Shown here: positions 4,536 to 54,754 of the stretch, in pieces
Layout of the letters: each line of letters begins with the position of its first letter
Numbering within the stretch: position 1 is the first letter of the stretch
Assembly (NCBI GenBank): GCA_023231475.1
Contig: JALJEE010003214.1
Location: 1-64,000 of the forward strand
Reading direction: 5' to 3'
DNA: 64,000 nt
Source: Seison nebaliae
Lineage: Eukaryota
The notes under the pieces: model-generated
Seen by the model: the letters and a program-made list of their open reading frames with translations, nothing else
The model's database searches: none
What the model was told of the DNA's origin: nothing
Translations under genes and position numbers: made by a program

Positions 4536-4582
4536 CATTTATGCGAAACAACGTATCCTGCATTCGATACGAAAATTATATA

Positions 4583-11895: not shown

Positions 11896-13287
11896 ATGAG
11901 TAAAAGAAAGAAGAATGAGGAGAGTTCAACCAAACGTTTCTTTCGACTTCATCCCATAACAAAATCACCTTCAACCAATAAGAATGATATTGAAGTGTTG
12001 AGAGAGACTCGTAATAAAAAATTCTTTCCCAACAATAACGAAAACAATTTATCGCCGTTGATGGTACGAACGACGAGATCGGCCGCATATCATCAGATAA
12101 TAAAAAATGGAAATTTCACAAACATCTCACGAACTTCACCATCTGCTTCACATTTTGTTGATCGAACACCAGGAAGTAATCAATGGAAATGTTCGACGAG
12201 AATCGAAGAGGAACTCCGTCCGATTTATTGTGTGAAATTCTCTTCGTTCCATTCGTCGCCGAACGAATATGTTTTCGCGGCTGCTGGTGGTCGACGGATT
12301 TCCATTTATTCTTACGAATTCCTCGTCAATCGAATCAATTTGAAACAGACATTCATTGCTGATGAGTCGAACGAAGATTTCTTAACCATCGAATGGAGTC
12401 GAATTCCTGATCGTTTAACTAAGTCGGAAATTGTCGTATTAATCGTTGGTGGCTTCCTGGGAACGATTCGTGTTATTGACGTTAATAATGGCGAATGTGT
12501 CCGATCATTGATTGGTCATGGATCATCCGTCAATTACATTCGTCTCCATCCCTTGAATTCGTCGTTGCTTTTCTCCGCCTCCAAAGATCATAATTGTCGA
12601 TTATGGAACGTAGAATCGAATGTGACGATCGCTCAATTCGGTGGAGTAGACGGACATCGAGACGAAGTTCTCTCACTTGACGTCCATCGACAAGGCGATT
12701 ATTTGGTGACTGGTGGAATGGATCATTCAATTCGACTCTGGTATTTGGAGCGAACTGATTTATTGGATGCGGTGAAATTATCATTCCAATACGATCGTCA
12801 TCGAAATCGACGGAAATTCCCAATGGTCAATATCCATTTTCCGATTTATTGTACGAGAGATATCCATCACAATTACATCGATTGTGTTCAATGGTTTGGC
12901 GATCTCATCCTCTCGAAATCATGCGAGGAACAAATTATTTTATGGAAAATTGGTCGATTCGACGAAGATTTACGTGACGTCATCCGTCCTGCCAAATTCA
13001 ATGCGGCCATCTTTGTGAAATTACCGATAAAAGATTTGAGCATTTGGTTCATCCGATTCCAAATGAATGACAAATGTAAACGATTGGTTTGTGGGACGAA
13101 GAGCGGTCGAATTCTCGTCTATCAATTAGGCGTGTCCGACGCGTTCTCTATCCGATGTCACGTATTGTTTGATCTAAATAATTCCGATTCACCTATTCGT
13201 TCCACTACCATTAGCGATGACGCCAACGTTGTCATAGGAACGAACGATGTGGGAAATATTTTTGTTTGGACAAATAAAATTAATTGA
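11896..13287 (+). CDS. EED: Polycomb protein EED/esc (WD40 subunit of PRC2)
   Basis: Diagnostic motifs SASKDH..RLWN, FGGVDGHRDEVLS, GMDHSIRLW, HFPIYCTRDIHHNYIDCVQWFGDLILSKSCE, IWFIRF; single exon. Confidence 0.95.
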   Translation: MSKRKKNEESSTKRFFRLHPITKSPSTNKNDIEVLRETRNKKFFPNNNENNLSPLMVRTTRSAAYHQIIKNGNFTNISRTSPSASHFVDRTPGSNQWKCSTRIEEELRPIYCVKFSSFHSSPNEYVFAAAGGRRISIYSYEFLVNRINLKQTFIADESNEDFLTIEWSRIPDRLTKSEIVVLIVGGFLGTIRVIDVNNGECVRSLIGHGSSVNYIRLHPLNSSLLFSASKDHNCRLWNVESNVTIAQFGGVDGHRDEVLSLDVHRQGDYLVTGGMDHSIRLWYLERTDLLDAVKLSFQYDRHRNRRKFPMVNIHFPIYCTRDIHHNYIDCVQWFGDLILSKSCEEQIILWKIGRFDEDLRDVIRPAKFNAAIFVKLPIKDLSIWFIRFQMNDKCKRLVCGTKSGRILVYQLGVSDAFSIRCHVLFDLNNSDSPIRSTTISDDANVVIGTNDVGNIFVWTNKIN

Positions 13288-13441: not shown

Positions 13442-15736
13442 ATGGACTGCAACTTCATCAACTTATCAACACAAATAATTCTCTTGATTATTATAATCAT
13501 CAATTCTGCCATCTCCCAACCATCATCAACGAAACCAAATATCGTTTTCATTTTGGCTGATGATTATGTTTGTGTTCATTCTTCCTCATTTCTTCCCGCT
13601 ATTTCTGCTAAATCAATTTTTCACTTCAATAATTTTTAGTTTGAACTGGAAAATTTATCGGAATTTTTTTTGGGTATAAATTAAAACCATCTTCAGACGA
13701 CCTTAACTAATTTTCCACATTTGTTTTCACAACTAATTTCTCATATTTGGACGAGGAGAAAAAGTTTTATTGCTATTCGAATATTCAGTTTGCTAAAACC
13801 GTCATTGATGGAATTGTATAAATTTTTCCTTTACTGGTGATATAATGTTAAATTGAATTAAATGAATTTATAATAATAATATCTTTCGATGTTTTTAGGG
13901 TCATTATGATGTCGGTTTTCATGGATCGACTGATATTCCAACACCAAATATCGACGCTTTAGCATATGATGGTATCATTCTCGATAATTATTATGTCCAT
14001 CCAATCTGTACGCCATCTCGTAGTGCTTTGATGACGGGAAAATATGATATCCATTTAGGAATGCAACGGAGTGTAATTGTAGGGCCCGAACCGTATGGTT
14101 TGAGTACGAACGAATTATTGATGAGTGATCATTTGAAACGGCTTGAATATTCGACACATATTGTTGGGAAATGGCATCTCGGTTTCTATCAACCTCAATA
14201 TTTACCAACCAATCGTGGTTTCGATACTCATTACGGTTATTATTTAGGAGAAGAAGATTATTGGACACATATCTCTTCGGATTACTTGAATTATTGGGGA
14301 ACTGATCTTCATAACGATACGGAAACGGATCGGAGTAAATTTGGGAAGTATTCGGCCGATTTATTTGGAGAAGAAAGTATCCGTCTCCTCAACAAACATA
14401 ATTATGAGAGAAATCCAATTTTTCTTTTCTTATCATTCCAATCTGTCCATTCCGGCAATTCTTGGTCACCATTACAAGCACCATATAAATTCTATAAACG
14501 ATTGAAACACATCAAAAATAAACATCGACGAATGTACGCCGCTATGGTTATGGCAATGGATGAGAATATCGGCAAACTCGTCCAATCATTACATCAACTA
14601 CACCAATTGAATAATACCATCATCGTTTTCTCGACAGATAATGGTGGACCAGCAGCTGGTTTTGATTGGAACTTCGCCAGTAACTATCCCTTACGTGGGG
14701 TGAAGAATACTTATTGGGAAGGTGGGATCCGTGCTAATTCTTTCATTTGGTCCTCTCAATTTCAACCACGGAAAAAACCAAGAAATCGTGTCAGTAAACA
14801 ATTTATGCACATTGTCGATTGGCTTCCTACATTATATGAAGCGATTGGCGCCGACCCAAAACAATTGAAAGATATTGATGGAATTTCGCATTGGAAAGAA
14901 CTGAAAGAATTGATGGAAACGGATAAACGTAAAGAAATCATTCACAACATCGATCAAGTCAAATCTATGACGTTATCGAACGGAATGAAAATCCACATTA
15001 ACACCACATACGGCCCTCACTGGAACGGATGGTATCGAACGGAACAAATTGAAAGTAAAAGTTGGAAAAAAATTTTAAAATTTCCCAACATTTCATTTTT
15101 CAAATTTTTTTATTTTTATCAAATTTCTTATTTTTATCAAATTTTTTTTTAGACCTAATCAAAAAATCTTTAAAATCCGTTGAAAATTTCGATAAATTAC
15201 ATAAAAATTTGTTTAATGATCATCTCCAATTCGTGTACGAACATTCGATGAAATGGCAAAATGGAACATCATCCAATTTGTCACCGATTGAAATTCATTA
15301 CATTCTCGAACAATATTCGACCGTTCTATTTTCCTTCTCCATTTCTTTCATCCATTTTATAATTTTCCTTTTCTCATTCTCTCCAAAAGGATTATTGGCT
15401 AATCGAACGAGAACCGGTGCGTATTATATGTGAGAAATCAACAGAAATTTTATGTGATCCTAATCAGCAACCTTGTCTTCATAATGTCACGTTAATTTTC
15501 CCATTTTTCACTAAACTATCATTCGACAGACGAACAGAGCCGATCCATGTGAATATAGGAATTTGGCAAACGAGCAACCAAATCAATTAATTGAATTGAT
15601 GACGAAATTGTTGTCATATGTTCCAAGAATAGTGTCGATTCGGAATCGGAAACCGGATCCGAAATCGAATCCTGAGTTACATTCGAACGTCTGGGATAGT
15701 TGGGAGAATGATACTTTCTGTCATTCCATTAATTAA
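13442..15736 (+). CDS. Arylsulfatase B/I/J-like secreted sulfatase, 5 exons (13442-13567, 13899-15060, 15153-15322, 15390-15490, 15538-15736)
   Basis: Signal peptide, PNIVFILADDY|GHYDVGFHG, CTPSR formylglycine motif, GKWHLG, FSTDNGG, NYPLRGVKNTYWEGGIR, PCLHNVT|ADPCE. The donor of intron 2 could alternatively be 15055. Confidence 0.9.
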
Positions 15737-15960
15737 ACTTTTAATTAATTAGTTCTCATAAATTAAAATTAATTGAATTCAACAAATAAATTTGGAAGTG
15801 GATTTCATTTAAAACTTTATTTATAGATAATAAACAACAAAATGGAAATAATAATTATCAATAATAAATAATTGTCTTACTCTTCCCCCATAAACGGGAC
15901 GAGGAAGTTCGTTAGAGTTTCTTAAAAAATTTGATCAATATAATATATGTCGGTAATTCT

Positions 15961-16017
15961 TTGTGTGTGCGTTTGTGTTTGTGTGTGTGTTTGTGTGTGT
16001 GTTTGTGTTTGTGTGTT
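15961..16017. repeat. Imperfect (GT)n/(GTGTTT)n microsatellite
   Basis: TTGTGTGTGCGTTTGTGTTTGTGTGTGTGTTTG..., lying downstream of the TMEM184C stop, probably in its 3' UTR. Confidence 0.9.
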
Positions 16018-16153
16018 TCCTGTATTGACAAGAGAATTGTATTGTGCACTCCCCATGAAAAAGTGGATCGATAATCAAATATCGAATAGTGTCGATGAAA
16101 TGGAGCAAAATATCGACAAGGAAGAAAACCATCATGATGATATTTGAGTAACG

Positions 16154-17686
16154 TTAAGAATAATTATTGGTCAATCTCTCCGATGTGACGGAGAGTAGAG
16201 GCGATTTTTCCGATACGTCTTCTTTTTCTTTGTGGTCAGGAAGATGATCTTGCTGAACATCTAAATTGTGCGTCATCGATGAACTATTCGCATGTTTCAA
16301 ACGAGGAAATTGACTAAATAAAATCTCATCATTTATTTCATCATTATCATTCTCTCCTTCATCCGTATTGATTTGTTGATCACTCTCTTCATTGTCTAAG
16401 AGAGGTCGATCTTGTTGTTGGTTAGCGTGTGAAGTGGAGATGATGGAACTGTTGTTAATGGCAGTCGATCTCCTCATCATAATTCCCACGAATTTCGCAT
16501 GTTCTCTCATATCGCGTCGAATGTCGCTAACGTCGAACATTTGGAAGAAATTGCCGAAACATCTCGAACGAGTACGAGCGGCTAATTGATTATAATCGTT
16601 TCCTTTCGTCCGATTAAGTTCGTTCGTCAAATAAGAGATATCGGGCTCCATTAGACGTCGTCGTTCGATTTCCCTTTCGACGATTAATCGTCGTCGATAG
16701 ATGTTAAAGGGGAAAGCGATACAATGAAGAATTGCGGCGACAAACATTTCGATACAAACGATGAAATCTTGTAATGATTTTGATGCCTCCTCCACATTCT
16801 TATAATATGGCCAAGTGTCAGATTTGATGATATTAAATTTCACCAAAATGGCGATGAGTACACCTTGCCAGAAGGTGGCGAAAACGACGGATTTGATACA
16901 AGCGAATTTCCACACGGGTTTGAAATCTTTCAATTCCTCTTTAGTGGCATGATAGAAGAGGAAAAGGAAATACATCGCCAGAATTTGAGAGACGTTATTG
17001 AAAATGACTAGATAAGACCACGACGTCTTGAAATTGAAATCGCCCTCTCCATATTTGTCGAATATTTGACAGAGGAAGGCGATGACGGTGGTACAAAGAC
17101 GAACGGGAACATATTGCAAAGTGCCATGTTTGCAAAGATTGACAAAATCTTTTCGTTTAATTCTCGGAAGACAACAGAATGGTATAATATTCTTCACCGA
17201 TTGTTGGAAATCGCGATTAATGAAATATAATTCAAAATCATTATTATGTTGAGAATTGAGATATTCGAGAATCATCATCATGAAATTATAGATGGCATAT
17301 GCTTCATAACATTCCCGCAACGTATCCAAATAAATGGCGGCATAAGGGAATTTGAGAGCGAGCCAAGCATCCAAAGCATAAATGGGAACCATCCACAAAA
17401 TACGAACCTGATAAATTTGAATTGATGGTTGTGTATAATTCATGATGTGGCCAATGATACCATATAATGACAATGGAATTGCAGCCATTACGAAAATACC
17501 TCCAACAAATCCCGCTTTCACTTTCGCATTAGCATGTGAACGCTGCAAATCATACACACAGAATGGAAGAGCCACACATAAAAGAATGAAATAAACGGTG
17601 AAAATAAAAAGAGGAAGATAATCCTTCCATCTCCTTGCCGGTGCCAATCGTCTATGTCCATTCAATTCATCAATATTCATCATCAT
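16154..17686 (-). CDS. TMEM184C: TMEM184C-like organic solute transporter family protein
   Basis: VRILWMVPIYALDAWL, YLDTLRECYEAYAIYNF, CKHGTLQY, KPVWKFACIKSVVFATFWQ, LQDFIVCIEMFVAAILH; single exon. Confidence 0.92.
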   Translation of the reverse strand: MMMNIDELNGHRRLAPARRWKDYLPLFIFTVYFILLCVALPFCVYDLQRSHANAKVKAGFVGGIFVMAAIPLSLYGIIGHIMNYTQPSIQIYQVRILWMVPIYALDAWLALKFPYAAIYLDTLRECYEAYAIYNFMMMILEYLNSQHNNDFELYFINRDFQQSVKNIIPFCCLPRIKRKDFVNLCKHGTLQYVPVRLCTTVIAFLCQIFDKYGEGDFNFKTSWSYLVIFNNVSQILAMYFLFLFYHATKEELKDFKPVWKFACIKSVVFATFWQGVLIAILVKFNIIKSDTWPYYKNVEEASKSLQDFIVCIEMFVAAILHCIAFPFNIYRRRLIVEREIERRRLMEPDISYLTNELNRTKGNDYNQLAARTRSRCFGNFFQMFDVSDIRRDMREHAKFVGIMMRRSTAINNSSIISTSHANQQQDRPLLDNEESDQQINTDEGENDNDEINDEILFSQFPRLKHANSSSMTHNLDVQQDHLPDHKEKEDVSEKSPLLSVTSERLTNNYS

Positions 17687-18362
17687 TCATCAATCCCAAA
17701 ATAATTTATTTCAAATTTCACTCGAATTTTTAACATTCACCAATTTCTCATTATTATCATCATCATCGTCGTCGTCGTAGTGGTGGTGAGTAGGAGGAAT
17801 GGTAAAATGATTATTCTTCCAAACCAAAACAGAGATCTTTCAACAAATTAATTATTTTCTGAAGAAGAAAATTTTTTACAAATTAATTTTATTTTTTAAA
17901 AAATAAATCGATCAGTTTCAATCGAAAATTCAACATTTTTTTATTAATTCCAAATAAAAAAATCTCATAAACATTTCAAGATAAATAATATAATTTTTCA
18001 TCTTATATTCATCAAATCGAATGGAGGGAGATCTGTTCGAACACGTACGAATATTCTCCTCCAATTTCTTTCTATTTCTCTTCTCCACAAGTCAATTCAC
18101 TTCGCAAATCTTTTTATTCTCTCTCCTGAGTACATAAACAATTTCCATTCACATATAAAACTTGTATGTTGATGTAAGAAATAAAATGAAATTGAATTGG
18201 ATTCTTCATTTCCAATTGCTCCTCCCCATAAAAAAAAAGGAATTTGTCATTCACTTCATCTCCAGATGGAGAGGAAGCTAAACAAAATTCCAGACAATTC
18301 AAAATGATTTGGGAAAATAATTGACAATCTCCACAATGAACTTATCTCTTTCGAATTGTTAG

Positions 18363-19634
18363 CTATTCATTCGGATTATCAACAAATCGTAAACATTTTG
18401 CAGCTCGACTTTTTGATGGTGTGCAACCACCATCTTTTTTCCGTCGTTTTTCTTCCTCATTCCGTTGTCGTGTCAATTCCATCAATTTATGATAACCCAA
18501 CACTCGTTTTTTCGGTTCTTCAATTTCAGACATTTCACATCCATGTAAAGTGTCGTGGAGAGAAGAATATTTCGACGGTTCCTTGATGGTATTGGAATAA
18601 GACATTCCGGTTCCATCCGTCACCGTTTCATGGAAATGATTTTTTACATTCGACACTTTCTCCAGATATCGTTTGATGTAAGGCGATGGAGGAACGAAAT
18701 CGAATTTTAATTTTTTCTTCTTATCCTGATGATTCGTTGGAGATGGTTCTGATGTTCGACATTCTCGTTTCTTCGATAATCGTCTATCATTCACGAAATG
18801 ATTATTGATCTGTGTTGTACTCGTCAAATGGCTAATTGAATGATGAGTGTCCTTCTCATGGAAAATTGATGGTAATTCGGTTGATTGTACCGTCGTCTTG
18901 ATAATGGGAGTAGCAATTGACACCGAATTTAATGTGTCACTACTCGTTTGACATCGAAGAGTTTCATTTGCTATTTTCAACTGTTGAACTTTTTCTCTCA
19001 ATTCCTTATTCTCTTTTTCCATGATGGTGAATAAAATGGAATTTGGATTAGTCTTCGAATCTTTCGACGACGAATTCAATTCATCAATTCTCATTTGAAG
19101 TTGCTGATTCTCTTTTTCGACGATCGCTAATTTCTTCTCCATTTGTCGAGCGGAATTCTTCGTCTCTTCGAACATCTTTTTCAATTCCGAATATTTTTCC
19201 TTTGCCACAATCGACGTCGCTTTCCATTCCTCCATCTCTTTCAATTGATTCTTGTTCTGTTTAAACATCTCCAAACGTCGTTCACCTTCTTCAATCTCGT
19301 GATTAAATGAAGCAATAATCCTCTCCAATTGATTCTTTCGTTTCAATCGCATCAATTGCGTTCCCTCTTCTAATTGTTCATCAATCTTCATTTCATCCAC
19401 AAATTCTGGACCACAATGAATCGGAATTATCTTCGAATCAATAAACGATAATCGACAATGTGGACACGAATCTCGATGTTTCCGCCAACTAGTCAGACAA
19501 CTCTCACAAAACAGATGTCCATTCTCGCAACTCCGACCATCAATCGCCTTAAACGGGAAATGAGAATTATAAAAAATAAATAATAAAAAAATAGAAACGT
19601 TTGATAGACAAATCCCACAACAATAAGTAGTCAT
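18363..19634 (-). CDS. C3HC4 RING E3 ligase with coiled coil, RNF219/OBI1-like; 51-nt intron at 19548-19598
   Basis: Removing the in-frame GTTTCT...TAAG intron gives CGICLSNAIDGRSCENGHLFCESCLTSWRKHRDSCPHCR, followed by RKNQLERIIASFNHEI (recalls the RNF219 post-RING helix) and a long coiled coil. Confidence 0.7.
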   Translation of the reverse strand: MTTYCCGICLSNVSIFLLFIFYNSHFPFKAIDGRSCENGHLFCESCLTSWRKHRDSCPHCRLSFIDSKIIPIHCGPEFVDEMKIDEQLEEGTQLMRLKRKNQLERIIASFNHEIEEGERRLEMFKQNKNQLKEMEEWKATSIVAKEKYSELKKMFEETKNSARQMEKKLAIVEKENQQLQMRIDELNSSSKDSKTNPNSILFTIMEKENKELREKVQQLKIANETLRCQTSSDTLNSVSIATPIIKTTVQSTELPSIFHEKDTHHSISHLTSTTQINNHFVNDRRLSKKRECRTSEPSPTNHQDKKKKLKFDFVPPSPYIKRYLEKVSNVKNHFHETVTDGTGMSYSNTIKEPSKYSSLHDTLHGCEMSEIEEPKKRVLGYHKLMELTRQRNEEEKRRKKDGGCTPSKSRAAKCLRFVDNPNE

Positions 19635-20414
19635 AGATTTTCGACAGATAACAAGATTAAAGATTCAGATTTGTTTCACACTTCACATTCAACTGATTAA
19701 ATCGCTTTCCAATGATGCTAATTCTGGTACCTGTAACGCTACAACTGATTCATAAGCACACCACTTCAATTTTCATCCTACTACCAAAATAGAAAAGACA
19801 CCGAAAAATTCAATGTTAAAAGTTCGGCTCAATCAATATATGGTCAATCAACTACATCCATTTAAAGGTATCTGATGTGAACGGAACGGCTATAAGTGGA
19901 ACGGACGAACCATTGACTGTTTTTAGAAAAACGAAGCTTTAATCCAATTTTTCTATGTTTTTTTCTTCTGACAAAAAACTTTGATTAATGTTCCTATTTG
20001 TATCCCGTCATATTCATTCCGTGTCGACAGTATACTACTGCCATATTTAATTTTTTATTTTAATTCTACTTGTTGTGTGATGTGTGATGACGTAAGATGA
20101 CATTATCCTAAATGAGTTATTCAAAACAATTTTATGAATTTCAATGACAAATACTACTTATCACAGGTTTAAAACTGTAGCGTGAGTTTGTGATTCGAAA
20201 TCTCAATATTGCCCGTTAATTTCGTTCCGGACGTTTGAACAATTTTTCGTTTGTCTTATGTAAAATGAGAATTTAGAAAGAATTGAAAATTGATTTGAAA
20301 ATAGAATAGATTAAAAAGTCGATTTCACTTTGTTTTGTGTTGTAATTTTCTTTCATTCTTCTAGTCCTTTTATATATCGTTAAGTCTTTGTTTCCTCGTT
20401 CCACTCAAAAAAAA

Positions 20415-22004
20415 ATGTTTTTGTTCCGTACAACAAATATTCGTTTGATGACTGCTCTGTTAATTTTATTCGGGGAATATGTTTCTTTAGTTTTTTCAAT
20501 TTTAAGATTTCGTGCTCAATCCACCACCAGTAATAATATAAGGGATGTTGTTGTTGTTGGTGGTGGGATAGTTGGATTGGCGTCATCACAGGCATTATTG
20601 ACGAAATACCCCAATTTAAATGTGACGGTTTTAGAGAAGGAATCACAATTAGGTTCTTCTTTCTCCTTTATTATCCTTTTCATTGTTTAAATGACGGTTG
20701 TTTAATAGCTTCTCATCAAACTGGTCATAATAGTGGAGTGATTCATGCAGGAATCTATTATCAGCCAGGAACATTGAAAGCGAAATTATGTGTGGAAGGG
20801 ATGGAAAAAATTTATGATTATTGTGACAAATATTCAGTTCCATATAAGAAATGTGGAAAAGTTTCTTTTTTTTTCCTCGAATTCACTCGCCAATTTCTCT
20901 CTCCATGTCAAATAGATAGTTGTTGCAATTGATGAGCATCAGATTCCTTATTTGACTCAATTGTATGAGAGATCGTTGGAGAATAAAGTGAAGGATGTAA
21001 AATTGATTAATGGGAATGACATTCCTGAAATTGAGCCAATGTGTCGCGGATTGAAAGCCATTCATTCACCTCATACCGGTATCATCGATTACGCTGAACT
21101 CTCACGTCAATTTGGTGTGGTGATCAAAGAGAAGAATGGCCAAATCCTGCCAAATACGAAAGGTATAGGTTTCGGAACTGATTGTGAAGGAAATGTCGTC
21201 ATTCTCACTAACAATGAGGAAGTTCGTTGAACGACATTTAATTTCTTACAAATTTATTTGTTAATTATTTTCCATTAACATACTTAGTATCGAGAGATAC
21301 GTAGTCGATTTGTGGTGACATGTTGTGGTTTACATTCGGATAAGATTTCCGTTTTAGGTGGATGTAAATCTAATCCGAAAATAATTCCATTCCGTGGCGA
21401 TTATTTAGTGTTGTCGAAAGAGAAACAACATCTCATCAAAGGAAATATTTATCCGGTTCCTGATCCTCGTTTTCCATTTCTCGGTGTTCATTTTACGCCT
21501 CGAATGAACGGTGATGTTTGGGCGGGACCGAACGCCGTTTTAGCCATGAAACGAGAAGGATATAAACCCACCGACTTCGTTTTTAAGGACGCACTCGAAC
21601 ATGTATTTAATACGTTAACATTTTATCTTTTAAACTTGTTTGAAATTCTCTTGGAATTTAGTGGACTAAGGAAATTGAGTATGAAGTTTTTGGGTGTCGG
21701 TCTCAAAGAAATCTATCGAACTTTAGACATTTCAGCTACGGTGAAAATTCTTCAGCAATTCGTTCCCGATGTGGAGACGAAAGACTTCCAACGAGGACCA
21801 TCCGGTGTTCGAGCACAAGCTATCGACACTGACGGTAGTTTAGTGGACGATTTCATTTTCGACACCAATTCCAACAAACCAGATTTAAAAGGGAAAATTC
21901 TTCACGTTCGTAATGCACCCTCACCAGCCGCTACCTCATCATTGGCCATTGCGGATATGGTGGTCGATGAAATGGAAAGGCAATTCCATTTAAAGGAAAT
22001 TTGA
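20415..22004 (+). CDS. L2HGDH: L-2-hydroxyglutarate dehydrogenase, mitochondrial; introns 20459-20506, 20653-20708, 20861-20915, 21222-21287, 21614-21661
   Basis: [100 protein letters not shown]. The first intron is the least constrained. Confidence 0.95.
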
Positions 22005-25000
22005 CGGAGAAATAGTGAAATAAAATTTTTTTAAATAAAATTATCTCGCGACAACTTTTTGCCATTTGACATTTAAGGAAAAATTAAGGGATAATTAATG
22101 GGAGAGATTGAGAGTCAAATATTCTCATGAAATCCGTCAATTATGTTTGGAATGTTCAATCGTATTTTTTCATCTTATTTCGTCCTCTCTTCATTTATCG
22201 AATGAAGAAAGGAGGAATGTTTTATTCTTTTCAATTGTAATTACGATAAATAAAAATCTTTCTAATTCTTTTAATTTTGTCCTTCTCCCATTGTTGTTGG
22301 ATAGTTGATAGAGAAAACGAATGGCAAACTAGGAAATGGCATGAAACATGCAATTGATTTGTTTCTCTATTAATAAAATTCTAAACAGGCAATTGGTTGG
22401 GAGAAAAAAAAGTTTTTTAATAAATTACCATTTTCCCCATTTTTTTCCGTTCGTCACTTCGGATTTTGTGTTACATTCGTTTCTTTTTCATTTCCAATCT
22501 ACTCCCCCATTCTTATTAGACTAGACTGACATTCTTCAATTGTTGTTACTATTGTTACTGGCTTCTTTCGTCCTCACTAATAATTGAACGGTTCGATGAT
22601 TTTTTTTCTCGTTATCATTATTTCTTTTTTCTAGTATGTGTTACGTTCGAAAAAAATGGTGGAAAGTTATCCGAATTTCTTCATTTTCTCCTATAATTCA
22701 TTTATTAATTATATTTCTTTCTCTCCCAGTTAGTTGTATCGAGTCTCTAGTCAAGCTAGAGCGCAAGTGATTCAACTCAATTCTATCTAACTTTAATCGA
22801 AATGAAATAATTTTAAACACATCTCCACACATCAAAACACAATGTGGATGATATACAATGAATATTATTCACATGAATAACATTCAATAGAGACATAATG
22901 ACATATAACCTGATATCATGTTTGATTGATGAATATTGAACGAGACAAGATATCTGCGGTTCTTCATCGAAATCTTTTAAAAATATTTATTCTCCTCTAT
23001 AACTTCCTATAAAACTGAATTGTTCGATTGGAAATTGCTCGTCCATTCGACAAGAAAAGTAAAAAAGAAAGAAAGATCTTTGAGAAACAGTTTCCCTAAT
23101 CGTTGTTCGCGATTAGAGAGATCCCAATTACAATTATATAACTATAACGCTTCATAAGATAATTTGAGTAGAAGATTCTTTTCAATTGTTTCTCCATTTC
23201 TATTATCTTCCAAATCATTATCGATGAATGAGGATATGAGAATATTTCCGGTTAGCATTATTAGGAAATTCACTTTCTTCTGCTCCTCCCCCAATTACCA
23301 TTGTGACGATGATTATGTGTGAGCAATGTGCGTTATGAGATAGATAAATCATTCGCAATCTTATCTGGAAAAAGGATTTGGTAACATATAAAAATGATGA
23401 AAATGTTTCGTTTGGAAAAAAATAGGACAAACAATTTTTCTCAATCGACCGCGACCGATAGCTATTGTCTGAGCATGAATTACCATCGGAAAAGTGGTAG
23501 AAATAGTCATTAGCCATGGTAAATTCGATATTCGTATTTATTGAGTTCGACGTAGAGTGGAGTGAAGTGAATAGATGATTGATGCGAAATGACGTTTCAT
23601 TTCGAAAGTTTCTTTGTTTTCAAGTGATTGGTAGAATTAAGAAAAAGTTTTCGATTAATCACAAATAAATTTTCGCGAGATATGATGATAAATCTTATTT
23701 ATTCTCCTTTTCGTTCGATAGTTTGCTGAAAACATCTTCACTTCTTCTACTAACAATTTTTTGATGTTCTTAAATGGTTGTTCGGAAGTTTTTCGAAGTT
23801 TTCTCCGAAGTCATTTCTCTCATGTCCCAAACACAAATGAAGTAGATATTTGAAGAAATGAGAAGAAGATTAGTCGACCGAATAACTCAACATCTTCAAA
23901 GAGAAGACAGAATAATCGAAATATACCGTTAATCGATTATCTTACTCTAAATACTTGATGTTGATCGTTATGTTTGTCGATAACGGACATAAACGTTATC
24001 CATCATCATCATCATCTTTATCGGCAGACGCATACGTTCAATCATTCTATTTCAAAATGTTTGCTTAATTGGACATTTTTCCCTTATTTTCTGCATACTC
24101 AACCACATTCTCTATCAACGATCAGAATTCGTTCCAATTTCTTTTTGAGATCTTTCTTTGGTGTTATCACAAGTCAAATATTCGTTAAAATGAAATTTAT
24201 CTTTCACTTCTCTTCTTACCATCAACCCAGTTCTCTAATTTACTCGTTTCAATATGTAATCTATAAATATTTATCAATACTTAATTACACATAATCATCA
24301 TCATCTATACTTTATTTATTCTATATAATGATTATATATTATAATGATCGATATAATGTATATCGTTACATTTTATAACCATATTTTAAAGAACCGTTAG
24401 AAGATTTTTATTAATTATACGCTTTGATCATATTAACTATTAATAGTAAAGATGTGTTAATATTTAATGGAGATAAATGAAAAATCTTCACTGATATTTC
24501 CATTCTTTCAATCGATTTTCTGATATGATAAAAAAGTTGGGAAGGATATCTGTATTCTGGAGGTTAATGACTTATTTTGAATGAAATTAGACATATCTTC
24601 CTCAAATTTCTTTATTCGTTATTTACTACTGCCATTATTATGATTTTATTTGTATTCGTTCTTAATATTATATACATTCGATTGATAACTTCTTAACTTA
24701 TTAATCGAATATAAATAATAAGTTATTATTTTTTATTTTTGACCACTTCTCAATCTTACCTAATCTTTTGGATAATTCTCATTTTTTCATTAACTTTTAG
24801 GACAGTTCTCAACTGAGATAATTTCTTCTAGTGATACATATTGGGTCGCATCACGTGACAATTCTTTATATTGATAAAGCAGAATATTGGAGATATTTTT
24901 AAATCGACATTATGTAATATTATCTCATTGATATAATTGACAATAAGATTAATGTGCACATCATCAAAACTAGTCACGAACTTACGACAACAATCATCGT

Positions 25001-27408
25001 AACCATCTGATTTTGACCTGCACGAAACTCATTCATTATAATCGTTTAGAAACTTTCAATTCTCAGCAGGTGTTCTTAAGAACTGATCTGAAAAAAGTTG
25101 TTTATCATTTTGTCCTTGACAAGGACTCCTTGTCTAATCCCTCACACATCACTTCAATAACTTTCCAATGTCTTTCCTTCAGAAATTATAATGGAAGATT
25201 TAAGAGTTTTTCCACGAAATCAATCGAGGAACAACATCTTCAACTGTGGTGGTCGAATTCTTGATAAAATATCGAATTCACTTCAAATACATCGTTCCCA
25301 CCAGAAATTATTGGTGGAACATGAAAAAATTTACGAGTAATAATTTCCATTTCTCCTGCTTAATGTTCGTCGAATAATTTTTTTTCGTAATTTTCAACAA
25401 ACGATCTAATTATCCATTTTGTTGCCAATTTAGCAAGTTTAATTTGAAAAGAATCAATTCTTTCGCGTCTGCTTAGTATAATGTTTTCCTTATTTCTTCT
25501 TTCCATTGAGAGAAACGAAGTCGATGTGGATAATAATTATGTAATTAAACTATAAAAGAGTATAAGAATGAAGGAATTTTGTAAGAAGGAGAATGAGAAT
25601 CTAATCGAAATGTCGTATGGAGGAATGACGTAAGAGATATGATTAAGAGTAGAAGAAAACGTCAAAATCGACAAAGATGAAATGAAATTCCATTAAACTT
25701 ATTGAGATGTTAGTAATGAATTGAAAGGAAGTGAATAATGAAAATGTGACATGTTATTAGAAGATGAACAATTAATCCATCTCATCTCAAATTACCAATA
25801 AATAATTTCAAATCTAATCTGACCTTCTCCCATTAGAAGGAAAGTCTGATGAGAATAGAATTTGCATCATCTTCTCAATGATCCTCCGGATTCGAATACC
25901 AATACCTAATTGGTTATTTCGTAGGAAAATAATTTAATTAGAATTGTTATTTTCTCATCTCTATATTCATTCGCCATCCCTTCGCCATCCCTTCAACATT
26001 GTCGATGACATTCCATGAAATAATATTTCTGAGATATTATTCCTATTAAGTTTCCATACTATTTATCATGTGGACATTTAGTATCCAGCACTTGAACGTC
26101 ATACATATTTGTTGAATGGGAAATAATAAAATAAACTCTGCACTTAATTTGCTCATGTAATTCGACGTCACATTTTCCCCAAATTACTTTTTGACATCAT
26201 CTTAGATCCGCACTCGTCTCACTTCAGATTTGCCATTCATTTCCCCTTCTGTCTCTCTTAATAACTAGTCGGCTTGGCGAAATTTTGAAGATCCATCCTA
26301 CTTGCCTATTATCTTACTTCATTCAATCGATAATATTCCCAGTGAGATTTTCTCACCCTTCTAATTCCGTCAAAATTGAGCTCATCTAGGACAATTCATC
26401 CATTGAAACTTCTTATTAATCGGACAGCTTGTTACTGATATTATGAATCATTACAAGTCTATTTAGCAAGCGAATTATCATTTAATTTGTTTTTCGAAAT
26501 CGATTAAATGATATATCTGATTATTATATGAGCGAATTGAATCATTGTGACGATATGGAAATCAAAAAATTGATGAAGAAGAGAATTGTCGTCAAGTGAA
26601 ATGATGATACGGAAATTGTCTGAAATTGTTATGGAGAAAGTGTCGAATAAGAATTTTGTATTAACATGTATGTGTCATATTGGAGAGTGAGGAGGAATCG
26701 TAGAAATAATGAGAGTTATGGTATAAGGAGATTCGATGTTTAAGAGGAAGAAGAATGACAGGATTTTCCACTTTCAATCACCTCTCATCCAGTTATTGAT
26801 TATGAGGAATAATTTATGTTGACTATGATAACTATTAATTAGGAGAGGAAAAGAATAAATTGTGGAGGAAAGGTATTCGTAGTAAATCTACTCTTATCGA
26901 TAAGAAGATTGTCTGAATGAAAAACAGATGAATCGAATTTGATGAAATGAATCCTTCACCAGTAATTGATATGAATATCATTCATTCTCATTCACTAAAA
27001 AATGAATTTCATAAGATAATTCTTCTAATTCGCTCATCTTCTTTCGACCATGAATGGCATTCTTTTCCTTTACACACACATATATTCCCCCACTCCATCA
27101 ATTCCATTCCCCCAGTTTATTTTCCTAAGAAAACAGTTGTCAATTTCGTATTTTCATTAATTTCTTTCCATCTTTTCTTCCTCCCAACTCAGTGTTCATT
27201 CTTTCCATTTTATTCAGGCGAAAAAAAGACATATCGATCCAAATCGATATCGACACATCATTACCAATTCTATCATTTAGATTAATAATCTTTGGATAAA
27301 TGGTGAGAATGTTGGAATGAATTGAAACGAATTGGAATCGTTTATAAAGATCAAATAACGATAAAGATAGTTTTAATGACGCTGTTGCCTCTTCGGTATT
27401 GATTGATC

Positions 27409-30123
27409 ATGTATGGGAAAAATGAGAAGAAGAATCATGAAATGAATTCGGAAAGAAATAACGATTTTACTGAAGATGAGATTGGTGAAGAGGAGCAAGA
27501 TACTAATAACGATATAATCACATTATGTAAATGTCGAGTTTTGTATTTGGGAACGACATTGATCGATATCACTACATCGAACAATACTGAGGGATTGGAC
27601 TCGATTCAGACGCCACTTTCCCGACGATATCCTGTCAATGGTGGTAACGCCATACATGCAGTTGATGCTTGGTTAACCGTTTATTCGAATGGACTTCAAT
27701 TGTCTTTCTGTCAAGGGACGAATGGACTCATTTTCTATCCAATTCGTGCCCTCAAATATTGTGCAGCCGTTCGATATGCTCAAGTGAATCAAACCGGACA
27801 ACAATATCCGGAGGGATGGCGATTCGTTTTATTAGACTCATTCGCTGCCGAACATCCCAAGAACAATTCTCATCCTCCGATTTTCAATGTGCAATTCATA
27901 AGAAATCGTCCCAATTTACCAACGACGATCGAATGTATCAGTTTCATCGCCAAGACTCGTCAAGCCGCTATCGCTTTAGTGCACGCATCGATGCACTCGT
28001 ATCACAAGACGATTGAAACACAATCATTAAGTAAGGTACCGTTATTCTTCGCGTATGATGATAATGGATCGAAGAACGCCGAATATGACGACCATATACA
28101 AATGGTGAATGCGAACGATGATGAAAACGGTTCTGATTATATCAACGACGCTTCCTACTCCGGTTACTTCTATTTGCCGACAACCGTCCAAATTGATATT
28201 TGGACGTTGTGGGAAGAATCAGATAAGATACCTAAGCCACCGTCAAGTCCTCGTAATAAACTGTCAATTTGTCAAACGAAGAATAATCGTTACCATACTG
28301 ATGATAATTCAGATGATGATAATGTCAATGTGAATCCAATCAATCATCTGAAGGATGATAGTTCCATCGAATCGTTAGATCTGCTTAATAATAACAAGAA
28401 AGAAAATAATTATTATAAAGCACAAATGGCGTTGGAGAAGTTGAAGAAGAAATCGAAATATCGATCAAGATCAAAAAATCGACTTCAATCTCATCTCACC
28501 ACATCCACTTCATCCACAAATCTTATCAATTCAGATATCGGATCATCGATCAATGAGTCGAATAAACGTCCAACAAAAAATTCCAGTTCATCCATACCAT
28601 CTTCTTTATCGTCATCATCGTCATCATCATCATCATCGTCGTCGATAAATTCATCATCGACAACTATTTTGACGTCGTCTTTTTCCCAAGAACATTTGAC
28701 GTCGTCGACGAAAAAAAAATTGAAGAAATATAAGAAGAAGGAAACGAAAAAGAAAAAACGATCGAAGAAGAAACGTCATGAAACGAAAAGTAGATCGAAG
28801 AGTGAGGATGGAGTTGATATGATTGATCCATATACGCCAGCGGAGAACCTGTATATGGTGGAGAAAGTATACGATCCAAAACATCCCAATCACGACATAT
28901 ATATCAGATGGCTTCGTCCTAAAGAACCGTCACCGATGAAAGTTGTGATTTGTGATAAGGAGAATAAATCGAATGAAATTATAACTAAATATGTGAAGAA
29001 AACGGACGAGGAGAATCCGAAGATAATTCAAGAACAATATTTGACGCCAGATTTATTGGAGAAATTACAAACGACATCGAACAAAAAATCAGAAGATCAT
29101 ATCGAATCCGTTCCACAGGCGAATATTAGAGAGAAATCTCTTACTAATCATGTGAGTTATGAGAAGCATCATAAGGAGAAAGATGTGGATGGAGTAAAAG
29201 AAAAAAGTAGAAAAAATAGAAAATCGAAAAAATCTGATATGAAGTTGAATAATAATAAAAATTATAGTCCATCGAATATCCATCAGAAATGTGAAATGAA
29301 GAAAGCAAATGGAAAAGTAGATGGAGGGAATGATCATAATTTAGATTCGATCGGATCCATTCCCGCTTATCTCCAATCATCACTTCAATTAAATGATAAT
29401 ACGAAGAAAGTGAAAGGTCATTCACATAAAGAACGTTCTCAATCGCAGGAACCATTTAAAATAATGAACGATTCATATCGATTATCATCGAATGATAAAT
29501 GGAAGAAAAGTAATAAAAAACATAAAAAAAGTCATCATCATCATCGTCATCGACATCATCATCGACATCGACCATGTTGTAGTCGATCCACGAGAGATGG
29601 TTCATTGGACGATCTGTCTGATATGAACGAATATGAGAAGCAAGAACAATATTTATTTCCCGAAAATTCTATGCACGCTAATGACCATTATCATTATAAT
29701 GACGCTCATATCGATCATCCACATAATCATTACGATACGTCAACAAACGGATGTACTTCTCCATATCGGGATGACGGTGATGGTCGAGTCAACGACGATT
29801 TATGTGACAAATGTATCCATTTCGGTTGTCAGGAACATGTGGCAAATAATGAATGTACATTATCGAAAGATATAAGAAATAAAGGATGTAATTGTCATTC
29901 TCTTCCATACAATACTCCCAGAGAGGACGAGAACAATTGTTTCAGTAGTTTAGCTAATTCACTTTACAGTACAAATTCGACATTTCAAAATAATTGGAAT
30001 GATCATCATCATCAAAAACCACCAACACAACAACAACAACAACAACAACAACATTCATCATTTCAACATTCTCATCCGTCTCATGCGCAACATCTTAACG
30101 CTCAACAAGAACAATCGCCAGTG

Positions 30124-30154
<31 letters not shown>

Positions 30155-30618
30155 ATCAACAACAACAAAACCATCAATTTGCCAATCATTTCACTCAGTC
30201 CAATATGAATAGTCCGTCGACATTGAAACAATCGATGTCACAAAACAATTTATCTCAATCACAACAATTTCCGATGTATCAACATCAATCATCAGCATTC
30301 GGCCATGACATGTTGCCCAATAATTATCCTCAACAAAACCATAGTCATTCTTCACATCCACATCATCATCCACCTCCACCAACTCATAACAACGTCGGAT
30401 TTATGACCAACCATCCACAATCTAATCAAACGACTGATCGTCATTTGGGAAATGCTGCAAAAAATCCAAATTTCCAACATTTACACAATTATGGTGCGTT
30501 AGGTGCCGATTCTCATTTCCATCAACTCTCACATCGAGTCACACAACAATATGGTGGGGAGAATGCCTATGCCACCAAGTCATCCGATCAAACTAATGAC
30601 TTTCATTCGTATTATTAA
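27409..30618 (+). CDS. Protein with N-terminal PTB/PID-like domain and long Ser/Lys/His/Gln low-complexity tail
   Basis: CRVLYLG...DAWLTVYSNGL...FYPIRALKYCAAVR...HPPIF...ECISF...AAIALVHASMHSY resembles a PTB-fold family I recall from spiralians; 3.2-kb open frame. Confidence 0.7.
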
Positions 30619-33135
30619 AAGCATTTACATTTGGACATGTCATTTCGACATTCTTTACATTCATCTGTTCATAAATATCATTTCCATCGATGGCATTCTC
30701 CTTCTACTCAATCTCTCCAATATTTCACGTTGTCAAAACATTTAAAATATAAACATCATTTTATTTTATTCATTCCCATCATTCATCAAATCTCTTCATC
30801 CATCAATTCTAATCTAATCTTTTCTTACAGATATCTAATAAACAGATCTTTTCATTTTCCACTGAAATCCTTTCCGTTTAAGGAAAAACATAAACTAATC
30901 TCAAAATTTTTTAATTTCTCAACTTTTTATTTTACAATCATCTGGTGACCAAACGTTAAATTTTCATGAATATTTTATTTGGAAACGAACTATGAGAAAG
31001 TGAAAATGAAAGAAAAAAATTTTGAAAGATCTTCAATTTAAAAATGAGAATTTATTATACGTACTAAACACCTTTACAGCCTTAATGAAACTATCCGATG
31101 AAATTGCACAAGATAAATTTTAGTAGAATAACTGGCAAATAACTGATTTTGTATGAAACTATTAAATGCTAGTAATGTACGGATTGCTCATTGAAAGTAG
31201 TATTCAATGAATACTATTCATAAATAAATGAATAAAATTTTATAGTTTTTTTTAGAAGATTGTTCATTCACCTCATACTTTACACACAGACGAATTAAAG
31301 TAATTCTTTTTACATTCATTCATCCCCGCAATATGGTACCCTGTTTAAGGGAAGCTGATCATGGTTAGTTCTTAGATCACGACCACATTATAGTTTGAAA
31401 GTTTGAATATTTTTTTTTTGAAAAACTGTATTTATCTTATTTATACATATTCTGTTTGAAAAGCTTTCATATTTGTTTCAGGAAATTTTCGATCAGAATA
31501 TTGCCTAACGAACGAAGATTAGTATTAGAATCAAAGTTCCAATATTGATACATCGCATTATCGTAAGTTGACGAATGCTTAATGATTGCGCTAACTTCTC
31601 CAGGTAATCGATTTGGTAAAGAGATGATGATAACGTTATCAAAAACCTTTCGGGTTAATAATGTCCTAATAAGCCAATGTTATGTTATCGAGATAACGGC
31701 ATCATCGACCGTTACATTCCAAGAAAGAGTTAGTTCGCATTCTATTATATCAGCATGAAGAATCACTATCAAAAAGGAAAGCAATTTTCCCCAAAAAGGT
31801 AAAAGGTAATCAAAACATTGAGGTAAAACGAAAAGAATTCAATCGAAGAATTCCCTCGAAAAAATAATTGAATGAATTGCACTGGTTGCAGGGAAGAGAA
31901 AGGAAATTGCGACGATTCAATATTCTTGAGATGATTAACATAACTCCCAAAAACCAATAACGGCAATAGTGGAAATTGCAAGATGATGAATATGAGAACT
32001 CTAGAAAATGGACGAATAAGACGAAATAGATATCTCACACAACGATTGTATGGTGGAAAGTTGAACACTCATATACAGATCGTCACAGAAAATTCTAAAC
32101 AAATTAATAAGTTAAAATACATTGTAAGTTTAATCTAACTAATAAATAATATGTAATATGTACCATCAACAAATAATGAACTCACAATGTTGTCAGTTAT
32201 GAAATATAATAGTATAATATGAAGTAATGAAAAACAGTTCATTGAACTGTTTTTCCTTGAATCATCTTGAACTTATCACTGATAAGATGTACAGTGATCT
32301 ATCCCATTTTCTTTTTAATTTACCTCAAGGGGTTTTGATTTTATAAAAAATAAAAAATAAAATAAACATATAGAAATCGAACAATTTTAATTCGAATAAG
32401 CATCAATTTTCTTTTATGTGTCAAACTTTTAAGGATGAGAAGATGTGAATAAATCGTAAGATGGTAATAAATAAATTGTTTATTTAAAATAAAAAATTGA
32501 AACAGAATGAGTTGAGAAATGAGTAGTATGAGGAGCGTGCGGTACTCTGTTGTTAATGTTCGGTCGACTGATATGTGTTCGGGGAAGAAGGAGAGTGGGG
32601 GATGGTGGTGATGGTGGTGGTAGTAGTTAGTGGAAAAGAAGAATGAGAAATAATAATGTTAATTATCAATTTGCATAGCGTAATACACGTTGGATAATAC
32701 TCGAATTGAGGAGAGGCTAATCTATATTGGGAGAGAGAGGTGACAACAGTCACATCTGGGACGTCACATTAGAGACTGTGGAAAATGAGAAGAAATAAGG
32801 AAATCTATTAGTAGATAAATAACCGGCGATCAACTTAATGCATCGATTTGTTGTCGATTGATCGAGATGGATGTGGGAAGACATGTCTCGTCACTTATCC
32901 GATTGTCGATGAAGTGAGAGGAAAAGATAATGTGAAAATGGATTTATTTGAGGAAATATTTCATGAAATAATCATCATCTTGTTCGACGAGATGAGATTG
33001 TGATATGTATGTAGAAAAGATGCGTATATAAATTGAGAATATTCGTAGAATTAAAGCGGAGAAGTTTGAAGAAAATAATGGAAGATCATTTCATTTCATT
33101 ATCGTTCTTAATGACTAAATGACGTTATTCAATTA

Positions 33136-36100
33136 TCACATGTTCATAAACCGTCGACAACATTCCATGACTCGTGCTGCATAATCCAATGCTTGTTTGC
33201 ACATTTCTATAAGGGAAAAATTAAATTAATTGGACGATTAGAAAAGGGGGAGAAGAAAAGGAAGAAAAACCTGATGAGCAGATATCAAGAGGAGAGCGAG
33301 TGGAGGAAGGATAAAGTAATTTGTCTTTCGTTCTTCCTACTAACAAATAGAAGCGTTTCGTACTTTCTTCGATTTCTGGAGATAATCCCTTCGACAACAG
33401 AGTTAGATCGGTGAAGAATGTCAAATTTTGTTCGTTCATGTAAAAGTGACACGCTTTCAATATCAGTTCGACCGCGTGTACTGCTTTGAAGCAGACCCAA
33501 TCATTCGCTGCCGATGTCATGTCTCCATTTGTCGTGATGAGATCGTTCGTTGTCGCATCATAACAATGTTGAGCGTGTTGGACATATGCTTTCGCTGTCG
33601 TCTGCATTCGCATCGCTTCTTGAGGATCAATATTGTCATTACTTCTCTGATGTTGATTATTGTATTGATAATTGGAATCGAATGGATCTAAAGAAGAAAC
33701 GGTAAATAAAAACGGTAAATAAAAATAATGAACTTTTCGTACTGGCATCTTGATAGAATTTCTGTTCTTGTTGTTGTCGTTGACGATAAGCTTCAGCGTA
33801 AGATTTCCTCGAAGCGTTAGGTCGATTCGATTTCGGATCGTTCTGATTCTTATTGTTATCAGTGGAATTGTATTGATAATCCGATTCGTATTTATATTTA
33901 TTCTCTTGAGCATCAAAACATTCAAAGAGCATTGATGTCGGATTGGTCGTATATTTAGTTTCGATGACGGAAATATATTTGAAAATTTCGTCAGCGAAAT
34001 CCGTATGATCCTTCAAATGTTTATCGGGATGCCAACGGAGTCGTAATCGTCGCATTTTCGATTGTCTCTCAGATTTGGTTGGACGATCGAGAATGTCTTT
34101 TATTTCGATGAGAACACACGCCTTAATATATGTGAGAGCATCGTCTTTCGTTTTACCGTTATAGAGAGGTGAATAAAATGGATAATCATTCTTTGAATAA
34201 TCTTCATGAAGATCATTCGGTTTCTTTTTATTAGTCGATTCATTTTCCGTTTTCGTTTCTGATGGTTTTTCTGATGTTGTCTCTTTTTTCGTATCGGTCG
34301 ACGTTTTGGTTGTTGATGGTTCTCGCGTTAAATCGGATTGAGAAGAATAAGTGGATGAGGAAGAGGATGATGAGGAAGATGATGATGGAAATGGTGACGA
34401 TTGACGAAAATTGTCAGATGATTTTTTAGTCGTTGACGGTTTTCTCATAAAATCATTTTGATCAAATGCTGTTGTCGTCGCTTTCTTATTATATCGTTTC
34501 TTCTGATTCTGTTGTTGTTGTTGTTGTCGTTGTTTGACGTTGGTGAACCAGGAATCATTTGGAAGAACTTTAGTGGCGTCATTAATTCTCTGAACAGAAT
34601 GACGGAAGAGAAAAAGTTGAGGAAATGTAATTCGAATGATGAGAGTGGAAAGATCGTTGATTGTCATATTTCCTGATCTCGAATTATCTGATGGTTCCGT
34701 CTTCGATGATTTCATATGATCCTGTTCACACAACAATCGACGATTTATTAATAAATCACTTCCATGTGAATTGATTAATGATGAAACGGATGGCATTATA
34801 CTCGCCAATTCTTTTGAATCATTCAAATTATCTTGATGATTATGATGATTATGATGATGGTGATGATGATGATATCGTTGATCACCATTTATTATTTTAT
34901 ATGATTCCGATGTGGCATCTTGATTGGAACGTTCATTAATATCTAACAAATTCTCCGATGTCGAACGTTGATGATGAGATGAATTATGATATTTCGATGA
35001 ATTGAGAAATAAACTGGAAAATTCTTCAGAATTCTGTTGTTGTTGATGATGGATGGGAAGAATGTATCGATCATTGAATGAATGTTCATTCAGATCGATA
35101 ATTTCACGATCATTCTCCATATTCGTCGATTGATGATGACGAATGATTTGTTCTTTAGCGATGGATGAATAAATCGTTTTCATTTGATTATCATTAAATG
35201 ATTTACGGAGGACGTTTGGCATCTGATCTTTCGATCGAGACGAATCATAAAGTTGAATATAAATATATTTATTCGAATATTGAACGATACGACAGAGAAT
35301 TCGTTGAATATATTCACCATTTCTTTCGATTTGTGCATCCTCACAATCCTCGTTGATTTTCGAGAAATTCTCATGTTGCTGATACGATTGGAAGAGTTCG
35401 GAACCGGCGGAGATTATTTCACGAATCTCGTCATTATAACAACGACATTTTATCACATACATATCGTTTATGTTGAGGAATTTTTGATAAATATGAAAAT
35501 TATTCAATGGAGCCGTAGTAGTAGTAGTTGTTGTTGTTGTTGATGATTTGATTTTGGCTCGTTCAACTTCCATCAATTCGGAGAGTGGCATCAAATAAAG
35601 AAGATCATCATCACTAATATCATAACGGAGCATAAGTGACATATGTTTCTGTTTATCTTTCAACATATCTTGATTCACTTTCTTCTCACCACCATTCATA
35701 CCGTTTAATGATAATAATTGATATCGATGAATACGTTTGGTATGGAAAGATGAGAGAATGGTATTGGAATAATGGGAACCAGATGACGGAATATAATTTA
35801 GATCAGAAATCGCTCTCAAATATTCCTCGTTCTCATCAGACGATAATGAATTCGTATAATAATTGGCAAGGAAGGTAGACATATGTGGAATGGACGTGGC
35901 CAACAATGAGGAGAAGACGCTGAGATCGAAAATCATATCGGAGAAAAGGAGAGACAATTCGGTGGCGAGTGCCAAAGGGAAATAATTTCGATCCGCATAA
36001 TTGACATTGATGAAAATTTTATAACGGAGAATCATTTCTTTCGATGATTTCGTCGGCAAATGTGACATGATATTATCCTCGTAATAATAATATAAATGTG

Positions 36101-39693: not shown

Positions 39694-39737
<44 letters not shown>

Positions 39738-42613: not shown

Positions 42614-42648
<35 letters not shown>

Positions 42649-54715: not shown

Positions 54716-54754
<39 letters not shown>

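Follow-up and report, generated by a model that had tools for sequence, protein, structure and literature searches.

A GTT splice-donor signal, apparently real but under-sampled, in a 64-kb window of Seison nebaliae

Splice donors that depart from GTRAG have been described in several settings, and it is against these that we compare the introns of a stretch of 64,000 nucleotides (nt) from Seison nebaliae (assembly GCA_023231475.1, contig JALJEE010003214.1, positions 1 to 64,000; hereafter the window), in which the well-placed introns begin, without exception, with GTT. The nearest counterpart comes from Entamoeba, for which donors with U at +3 are already published: there the transformed donors read GUUUGU(U), U1 has co-evolved to AACAAAC, and the U6 ACAGA box has been kept (bioRxiv 10.1101/2022.06.08.495308). 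The resemblance to the window includes the replacement of the +3 purine by U, the retention of U at +6, short AT-rich introns and intron-poor genes, and extends to one donor, at position 13568, that is exactly GTTTGT; U stands at +3 in all 8 well-placed donors, and in 12 of 14 once every candidate is counted. In Entamoeba, however, 88–89% of donors are GUUUGU and G is kept at +5, whereas in the window GTTTGT accounts for one donor of 12, positions +4 and +5 are variable, with G at +5 in 2 of 8. The organism here, moreover, is an animal.

Human donors have been divided into a U5 class, AG//GUNNN, and a U6 class, NN//GURAG (PMC11732430). The donors of the window are like the former in having mostly lost +5G while retaining an exon signal (A at −2 in 8 of 8), but the U5 class needs G at −1, which is present here in only two of the eight, and half of the donors (4/8) match neither class. 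A small minority of human donors begin with GUU and are read in shifted or bulged U1 registers (PMC4856993). The window's donors share this beginning, and with it the possibility of U–pseudouridine contacts; yet the +1 shift requires G at +6, and a shifted-register reading was rejected, +6G being found in 0 of 12. Shifted U1 registers were reportedly set out by Roca and Krainer in 2009. In Saccharomycotina, finally, a switch between A and U at +4 is linked to METTL16 and SNRNP27K with no change in the sequence of U1 or U6 (PMC10581693). That case resembles ours in that a donor consensus is altered at the level of a lineage, there with U1 and U6 unchanged; it differs in that the switch lies at +4 and not at +3, while +4 in the window is without preference (T in four good donors, A and C in two each). 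Because the link to METTL16 and SNRNP27 concerns +4, which is variable here, these proteins would be poor predictors of a change at +3. On the co-evolution of U1, U6, U1C or Luc7 that was predicted for the window, the precedents of Entamoeba and Saccharomycotina point in opposite directions.

Placement of the introns

A first-pass annotation of the window listed 12 donors and claimed that all reconstructable introns use a T-rich GTT donor, several of them fixed by protein homology. Each of the 12 hexamers is present at its position and on its strand. Near each junction we enumerated every GT..AG or GC..AG pair that keeps the frame open (GT and GC being the only donors considered) and scored the products on hidden Markov model (HMM) profiles of 60 homologues each. 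A composition score for exon versus intron, with an intron model trained in part on these very introns, was read alongside; the 1% point of coding windows lies at −2.4 bits. The spliced models are full-length proteins without stops in which conserved motifs are restored, and removal of the GT..AG segments restores the conserved reading frame, as looked for in U2-type introns. The donor sample so obtained comprises 8 good introns, placed from sequence evidence, in four genes of this one window:

13442..15736, + strand: arylsulfatase B/I/J-like gene, 5 exons, 585 residues as modelled; best named homologues about 50–52% identical
18363..19634, − strand: RING-finger gene, 2 exons
20415..22004, + strand: L-2-hydroxyglutarate dehydrogenase (L2HGDH) gene, 5–6 exons, 439 residues as modelled
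33136..47636, − strand: giant sacsin-like gene, HEPN-like domain at the C terminus, 5′ end tentative; weak PDB matches

The well-placed introns, with a slash at the donor boundary, are as follows:

13568..13898, + strand: 331 nt, tat/GTTTGT..TTTAG, phase 0 (ADDY/GHYD), fixed by homology
15491..15537, + strand: 47 nt, cac/GTTAAT..AACAG, phase 2 (HNVT ADPCE), fixed by homology
20653..20708, + strand: 56 nt, tag/GTTCTT..AATAG, phase 1 (QLA SHQ), fixed by homology
20861..20915, + strand: 55 nt, aaa/GTTTCT..AATAG, phase 0 (CGK/IVVA), fixed by homology
21614..21661, + strand: 48 nt, tac/GTTAAC..TTTAG, phase 2 (FNT GL), fixed by homology
21222..21287, + strand: 66 nt, gaa/GTTCGT..CTTAG, contains a stop
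19548..19598, − strand: 51 nt, aac/GTTTCT..TTAAG, phase 0, in frame, stop-free, 63% T
33207..33270, − strand: 64 nt, cag/GTTTTT..TATAG, phase 1

Five donors – those at 13568, 15491, 20653, 20861 and 21614 – are fixed by comparison with homologous proteins, as the first-pass annotation had maintained, and all five are GTT. The donor at 13568 stands 7 bits above the next pair, itself GTT, and that at 15491 stands 7.7 bits above its GTCACG rival; the three-residue spacer made by the 15491 join is present in 112 of 120 homologues, the other 8 being without a match to the motif. At 20653 a single donor preserves the frame, and at 20861 the margin is 14.5 bits. The intron at 21614 is in frame, and its donor scores 14 bits above both the next pair and retention, which would leave a 16-residue insertion relative to homologues. 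In the best-scoring model of the last sulfatase intron the first AG, at 15529, is bypassed and 15537 is used.

Three more GTT donors are well supported by sequence features other than the HMM margin, which is not decisive. At 21222 the top two pairs (21222 and 21226) are 1 bit apart and both GTT. The donor at 19598(−) is the only one with an open frame, and its join yields a nine-residue RING spacer; retention would be in frame, yet the composition score of −22.5 bits marks the segment as intron-like. That at 33270(−) is the only GT donor to retain the LYP segment and the end of the HEPN-like domain, GC donors at 33279 and 33297 being formally possible. A blind junction finder applied to two window genes returned five junctions: four coincide with calls above, all GTT and with margins of at least 7 bits, while the fifth merged two introns; the introns at 20459, 21222 and 21614 were missed.

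The other four donors of the original list, and two candidates absent from it, are less certain:

15061..15152, + strand: intron of 92 nt, aaa/GTTGGA, ambiguous with GTAAAA at 15055
15323..15389, + strand: intron of 67 nt, acc/GTTCTA..AAAAG, with a rival GTGTAC at 15233
20459..20506, + strand: probable intron of 48 nt, tct/GTTAAT, in frame, in an N-terminal leader, unproven
33688..33733, − strand: intron of 46 nt, aaa/GTTCAT..TTTAG, ambiguous with in-frame GTACGA at 33742
47501..47605, − strand: candidate non-GTT intron of 105 nt, atg/GTAAAC..AACAG, first intron of the sacsin-like gene
51694..51771, − strand: candidate canonical intron of 78 nt, aag/GTGAGT..TTTAG, near the end of a 1472-codon open reading frame (ORF), ambiguous

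The ambiguity at 15061, already flagged in the first pass, is genuine, the HMM scores being 694.7 bits against 692.9 bits for the in-frame GTAAAA (1.8 bits apart); composition favours GTT there weakly, by +3 bits, and does so to the same extent at 33733(−), whose GTACGA rival lies 9 nt upstream. At 15323 the two lines of evidence disagree: the HMM places GTGTAC 6.9 bits higher, whereas the disputed 90 nt are coding-like (+22.8 bits), which favours GTT. For 20459, retention and splicing score 632.9 and 633.0 bits, and composition is intron-like (−11.2 bits). Over its first 272 codons the sacsin-like ORF lacks a Met, and it begins after a strong T-tract/CAG acceptor at 47501(−); GTAAAC at 47605(−) is the nearest donor to keep the frame, following an ATG at 47636, with GTT donors possible farther off, and composition is −35.7 bits for the candidate intron and +9.8 bits for its first exon. 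The candidate at 51771(−) is ambiguous because the ORF also meets a stop 17 codons on, and, as no usable family for the 1472-residue product emerged from the ESM Atlas, its donor is not fixed. Since the candidates GTAAAC and GTGAGT exist, the claim that all introns are GTT was overstated: it holds for the 8 well-placed introns, while 4 of the 12 listed are ambiguous and two candidate non-GTT donors had gone unlisted.

The donor pattern against controls and chance

Taken together the 8 good donors read AN/GTTNNT, with T at +3 in every case and at both +6 and +8 in 7 of 8, and with G in two of eight at −1 and again at +5. Across all 12 listed donors T occupies +3 in 12, +4 in 4 and +5 in 3. The introns are short (46–92 nt in 11 of 12, the other being 331 nt) and rich in T, which makes up 49% of their interiors and 41–77% of positions +4 to +25 in the 8 good introns. 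A U12-type origin was rejected, the RTATCC donor motif occurring in 0 of 12, and so was an origin from Introner-like elements, a comparison among 14 introns having given only AT-rich matches of 10–14 nt.

As controls, and as controls only, we used 80 metagenomic loci encoding EED from other eukaryotes, 35–48% identical at the top and some of them mutually related. These gave 80 junctions, 53 after removal of 9 near-duplicate loci, and 38 that were confident (a GT donor, a margin of at least 6 bits and a profile gap of at most 12) in 15 loci. The 38 donors comprise 29 GTA, 4 GTG and 5 GTT, and every GTT among them is preceded by G. The excess of GTT in the window is marked whether all good donors are counted (8/8 versus 5/38; Fisher p 5e-6) or only those fixed by homology (5/5 versus 5/38; p 2.6e-4). 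A +3 purine, as in the canonical MAG/GTRAGT, is found in none of the 8 but in 33 of the 38, and the GTT donors themselves differ, with G at −1 in 5/5 of the controls against 2/8 here (p 0.02). Donors lacking both −1G and +5G make up 4 of 8 in the window and 4 of 38 in the controls. The predicted duplex with a standard U1 averages −2.1 kcal/mol here and −6.1 in controls; Watson–Crick pairs with that U1 number 6.0 here, 6.9 in controls and 4.2 at random GT. One control locus, L051 (447–1680), which groups with arthropod EEDs, has 5 introns, of which 3 are GTT, all after AG, and 1 is GC.

A change of donor consensus away from GTRAG, as first proposed, is supported within the window by the lack of a +3 purine and of any U12 motif in the well-placed donors; its description as lineage-wide extends a sample of four genes.

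Explanations for the pattern

To judge from the donors, the splicing machinery of this organism likely recognises the beginnings of introns in a changed way. The reading towards which we lean, with some reserve, is that of a degenerate +3U donor, AN/GTTNNT, used by an unchanged major spliceosome through definition of the short intron and not through strong pairing with U1. Selection on the +3 purine, −1G and +5G would have lapsed; a downstream U tract would help to recruit U1 through TIA-1/U1C; U–pseudouridine contacts would tolerate U at +3 and +4; loop 1 of U5, placed on the A-rich exon end, would fix the cut site; and an unchanged U6 ACAGA box would pair with +2U, +3U (by G–U wobble) and +6U despite the mostly lost +5G. 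TIA-1/Nam8 are described as bringing U1 to weak donors that precede U tracts (PMC9311317), a U–pseudouridine contact between U1 and donor is on record (PMC4856993), and in GUUUGU donors an unchanged U6 ACAGA pairs with +2 to +6 (Roy and Bowser, bioRxiv 10.1101/2022.06.08.495308). Introns of ancestral age would have been converted where they stood, with no new insertion. In L2HGDH, two introns fall at A86 and K136 of a porpoise homologue; these positions would match the human exon ends c.256 and c.408, a correspondence that a literature search did not confirm, and only if it holds may these introns be regarded as ancestral and converted. The variability of +4 and +5, unlike the fixed motif of Entamoeba, counts for the degenerate donor, and the two candidate GTA/GTG donors suggest that standard sites would still work.

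Several observations weigh against this interpretation. The invariance of +3T, set beside the variation at +4 and +5, looks more like a positive preference for +3U, such as a changed U1 would produce, than like relaxation. Human reporter assays find non-G at both −1 and +5 to be highly unfavourable (PMC9311317), and four of the eight good donors are of just this kind; the deficits of −1G (p 0.06) and +5G (p 0.12) are singly not significant. Within these introns T follows 16 of 22 interior GTs (18 of 24 in a concatenated count), so that GTT would be a frequent outcome for any donor held to nothing more than GT. Neither GTT nor GTRAG is specifically avoided in coding sequence (31.8 kb): AN/GTTNNT is depleted on the sense strand (28 versus 43, z −2.6), AN/GTANNT is depleted too, and a codon-junction test revealed no avoidance of GT/T or G/TT. 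Finally, the evidence comes from 8 introns in four genes, in a window where an Rfam scan returned two tRNAs and no small nuclear RNA (snRNA), and where no splicing-factor gene was seen.

A compensatory change in an snRNA – a U1 5′ end with A facing +3, and possibly +4 as well, by which GUU is positively recognised – would account for the constancy of +3 beside the freedom of +4, and for a run of 8 GTT donors that has a probability of 0.013 at the rate of 58% with which T follows T in the intron interiors (0.0004 at 38%). Such variants raise the mean number of U1 pairs from 6.0 to 7.0 or 7.4, and lower it in controls, an effect that is partly by construction; canonical-looking donors lie within long open frames at 41512(−) (AG/GTGAGT), 55152(−) (AAG/GTGAGA) and 56700(−) (G/GTGAGT); and the DNA is poor in introns, the background against which donors become transformed. 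The explanation is nonetheless unlikely: the gain in duplex energy is small (from −2.1 to −2.6 or to −3.1 kcal/mol), +4 and +5 are unconstrained where Entamoeba has nearly a single hexamer, most lineages with atypical donors keep a standard U1, and candidate GTA/GTG donors are present in the window. Unlikely to much the same degree is the broader proposition that an animal lineage has rewritten its donor code genome-wide to AN/GUUNNU, giving up the +3 purine, −1G and +5G all at once, with a U1 5′ end or U1C, Luc7 or U6-side proteins changed so as to read +3U; the analogy that would make it the animal counterpart of Entamoeba, with a motif degenerate instead of fixed, is drawn with correspondingly little confidence.

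GTT might instead be simply a common donor class, perhaps a third to a half of the total, in a genome rich in A and T whose introns are rich in U, a trait that related rotifer-like animals may share; the window would then be a lucky one, helped by the choice of GTT in the ambiguous cases. GTT donors are frequent in bdelloid rotifers and nematodes. T follows GT at 41% (+) and 38% (−) across the window and at 43–54% in T-rich contexts, and at a rate of 75%, close to that of the intron interiors, a run of eight has a probability of about 0.1. Three of the listed donors have GTA/GTG rivals, the two further candidates are GTA/GTG, GTT makes up 3 of the 4 GT donors of control locus L051, and the sample is one of four genes. 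Set against this are the lower 95% bounds on the GTT share – 63% for 8/8, 57% for 12/14 and 44% for 8/10, the most severe count, treating the introns of four genes as independent – and the −1G that the control GTT donors, but few of those in the window, retain. We consider chance of this sort improbable on balance, and GTT is likely, from the donors placed here, to be the majority class of the genome. Much less probable again are misplaced boundaries or genes spliced in some other way, through assembly errors, pseudogenes or non-GT donors. The calls are made from sequence alone, with GT and GC donors the only ones enumerated, and the introns at 19598, 20459 and 21614 are in frame and stop-free; but error of this kind is hard to square with spliced proteins that are full-length, stop-free and restored in their conserved motifs, with four calls recovered blind, and with segments that resemble introns in composition and whose AG ends are T-rich.

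The window and the meaning of its donors

The window is AT-rich (GC 28–40%) and its genes are densely packed, many without introns; seisonid genomes are of similar GC, with compact genes (PMC8351084), a likeness that fits the window but is no proof of its origin. EED, a TMEM184-like gene and ORFs of 1071 and 4626 codons are intronless, and 13 coding stretches (31.8 kb) yielded no hidden in-frame intron. The 1071-codon ORF is presumably PTB-like. EED and TMEM184 genes are multi-exon in most animals, and their intronless state here points to heavy intron loss. The features concerned, with the long ORF mentioned above, are:

11893..13287, + strand: EED/Esc ORF, intronless, the basis for placing the organism
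16154–17686, − strand: TMEM184-like gene (Pfam Solute_trans_a), intronless
51719–56137, − strand: 1472-codon ORF, no Pfam or ESM Atlas family

Homologues of the window's proteins are animal but distant: among the matches listed, top identities are at most 62% for L2HGDH, 53% for the sulfatase and 42% for EED, the best full-exon match in a representative library is 50%, and a metagenome scan with TMEM184 gave no relative in 599 pattern matches. Two FastTree trees place the window's EED as sister to that of Brachionus plicatilis, with a support of 0.95 for 90 sequences and of 0.91 for a smaller set, and the same placement came from an IQ-TREE run that did not finish. The sequence indicates an animal that is fast-evolving and probably related to rotifers, an affinity that is only a lead because a single long-branched gene supplies it and the trees include one named rotifer.

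Other features of the window deserve record. In the sacsin-like gene one exon spans some 13.8 kb, carries long runs of N, Q, S and T, and has a terminal HEPN-like domain; a PDB search returned weak matches only (TM0613 HEPN, E 0.05; sacsin, E 0.23), and an HPDK motif near its end is, we assume, J-domain-like. The RING-finger gene presumably resembles OBI1/RNF219. The 1472-codon ORF is possibly joined, through an acceptor near 56138, to an upstream 324-codon ORF (56498–57472, −), and the gap between them holds short tandem repeats near 56330–56460. Two stretches, 4500–4680 and 10190–10300, were recognised by eye as related and oppositely oriented; they may represent mobile-element ends, with about 5.5 kb between them that carries a GT92-like gene and a tRNA-Glu; degenerate retroelement-like ORFs lie at 426–1905. 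T-tract/AG acceptor-like sites precede the GT92-like ORF, at 5436(+), and the 1071-codon ORF, at 27219(+), and suggest introns in the 5′ untranslated regions whose donors are not placeable. Codon choice in the coding sequence depends strongly on the neighbouring bases: NAT/NAC and NGT/NGC codons end in T in more than 90% of cases before C or T and in 65–80% before A or G, and G-ending codons stand at 64–67% before AA or AG and at 14% before CA, CG or CT.

Literature searches, made at the level of listings and with most subscription journals outside their reach, returned no animal or rotifer GTT donor consensus, donor logos often sitting in supplements, and no donor logo was found in the accessible parts of PMC8351084, PMC10125929 and PMC10639083. 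The GTT signal itself is, on the sequence of these introns, real but under-sampled. Its interest lies in the fact that the +3 purine, and the rule that G occupies −1 or +5, belong to what is steadiest in the splice donors of animals. If the pattern is true of the whole genome, with most splicing at GUU donors that have neither G, the animal would offer a natural experiment on the way in which U1, U5 and U6 share in the choice of donor; it would equally test whether intron-poor lineages need strict donors, the window being intron-poor and yet degenerate. In genomes of this kind, annotation by gene predictors that have learned GTRAG would go wrong.

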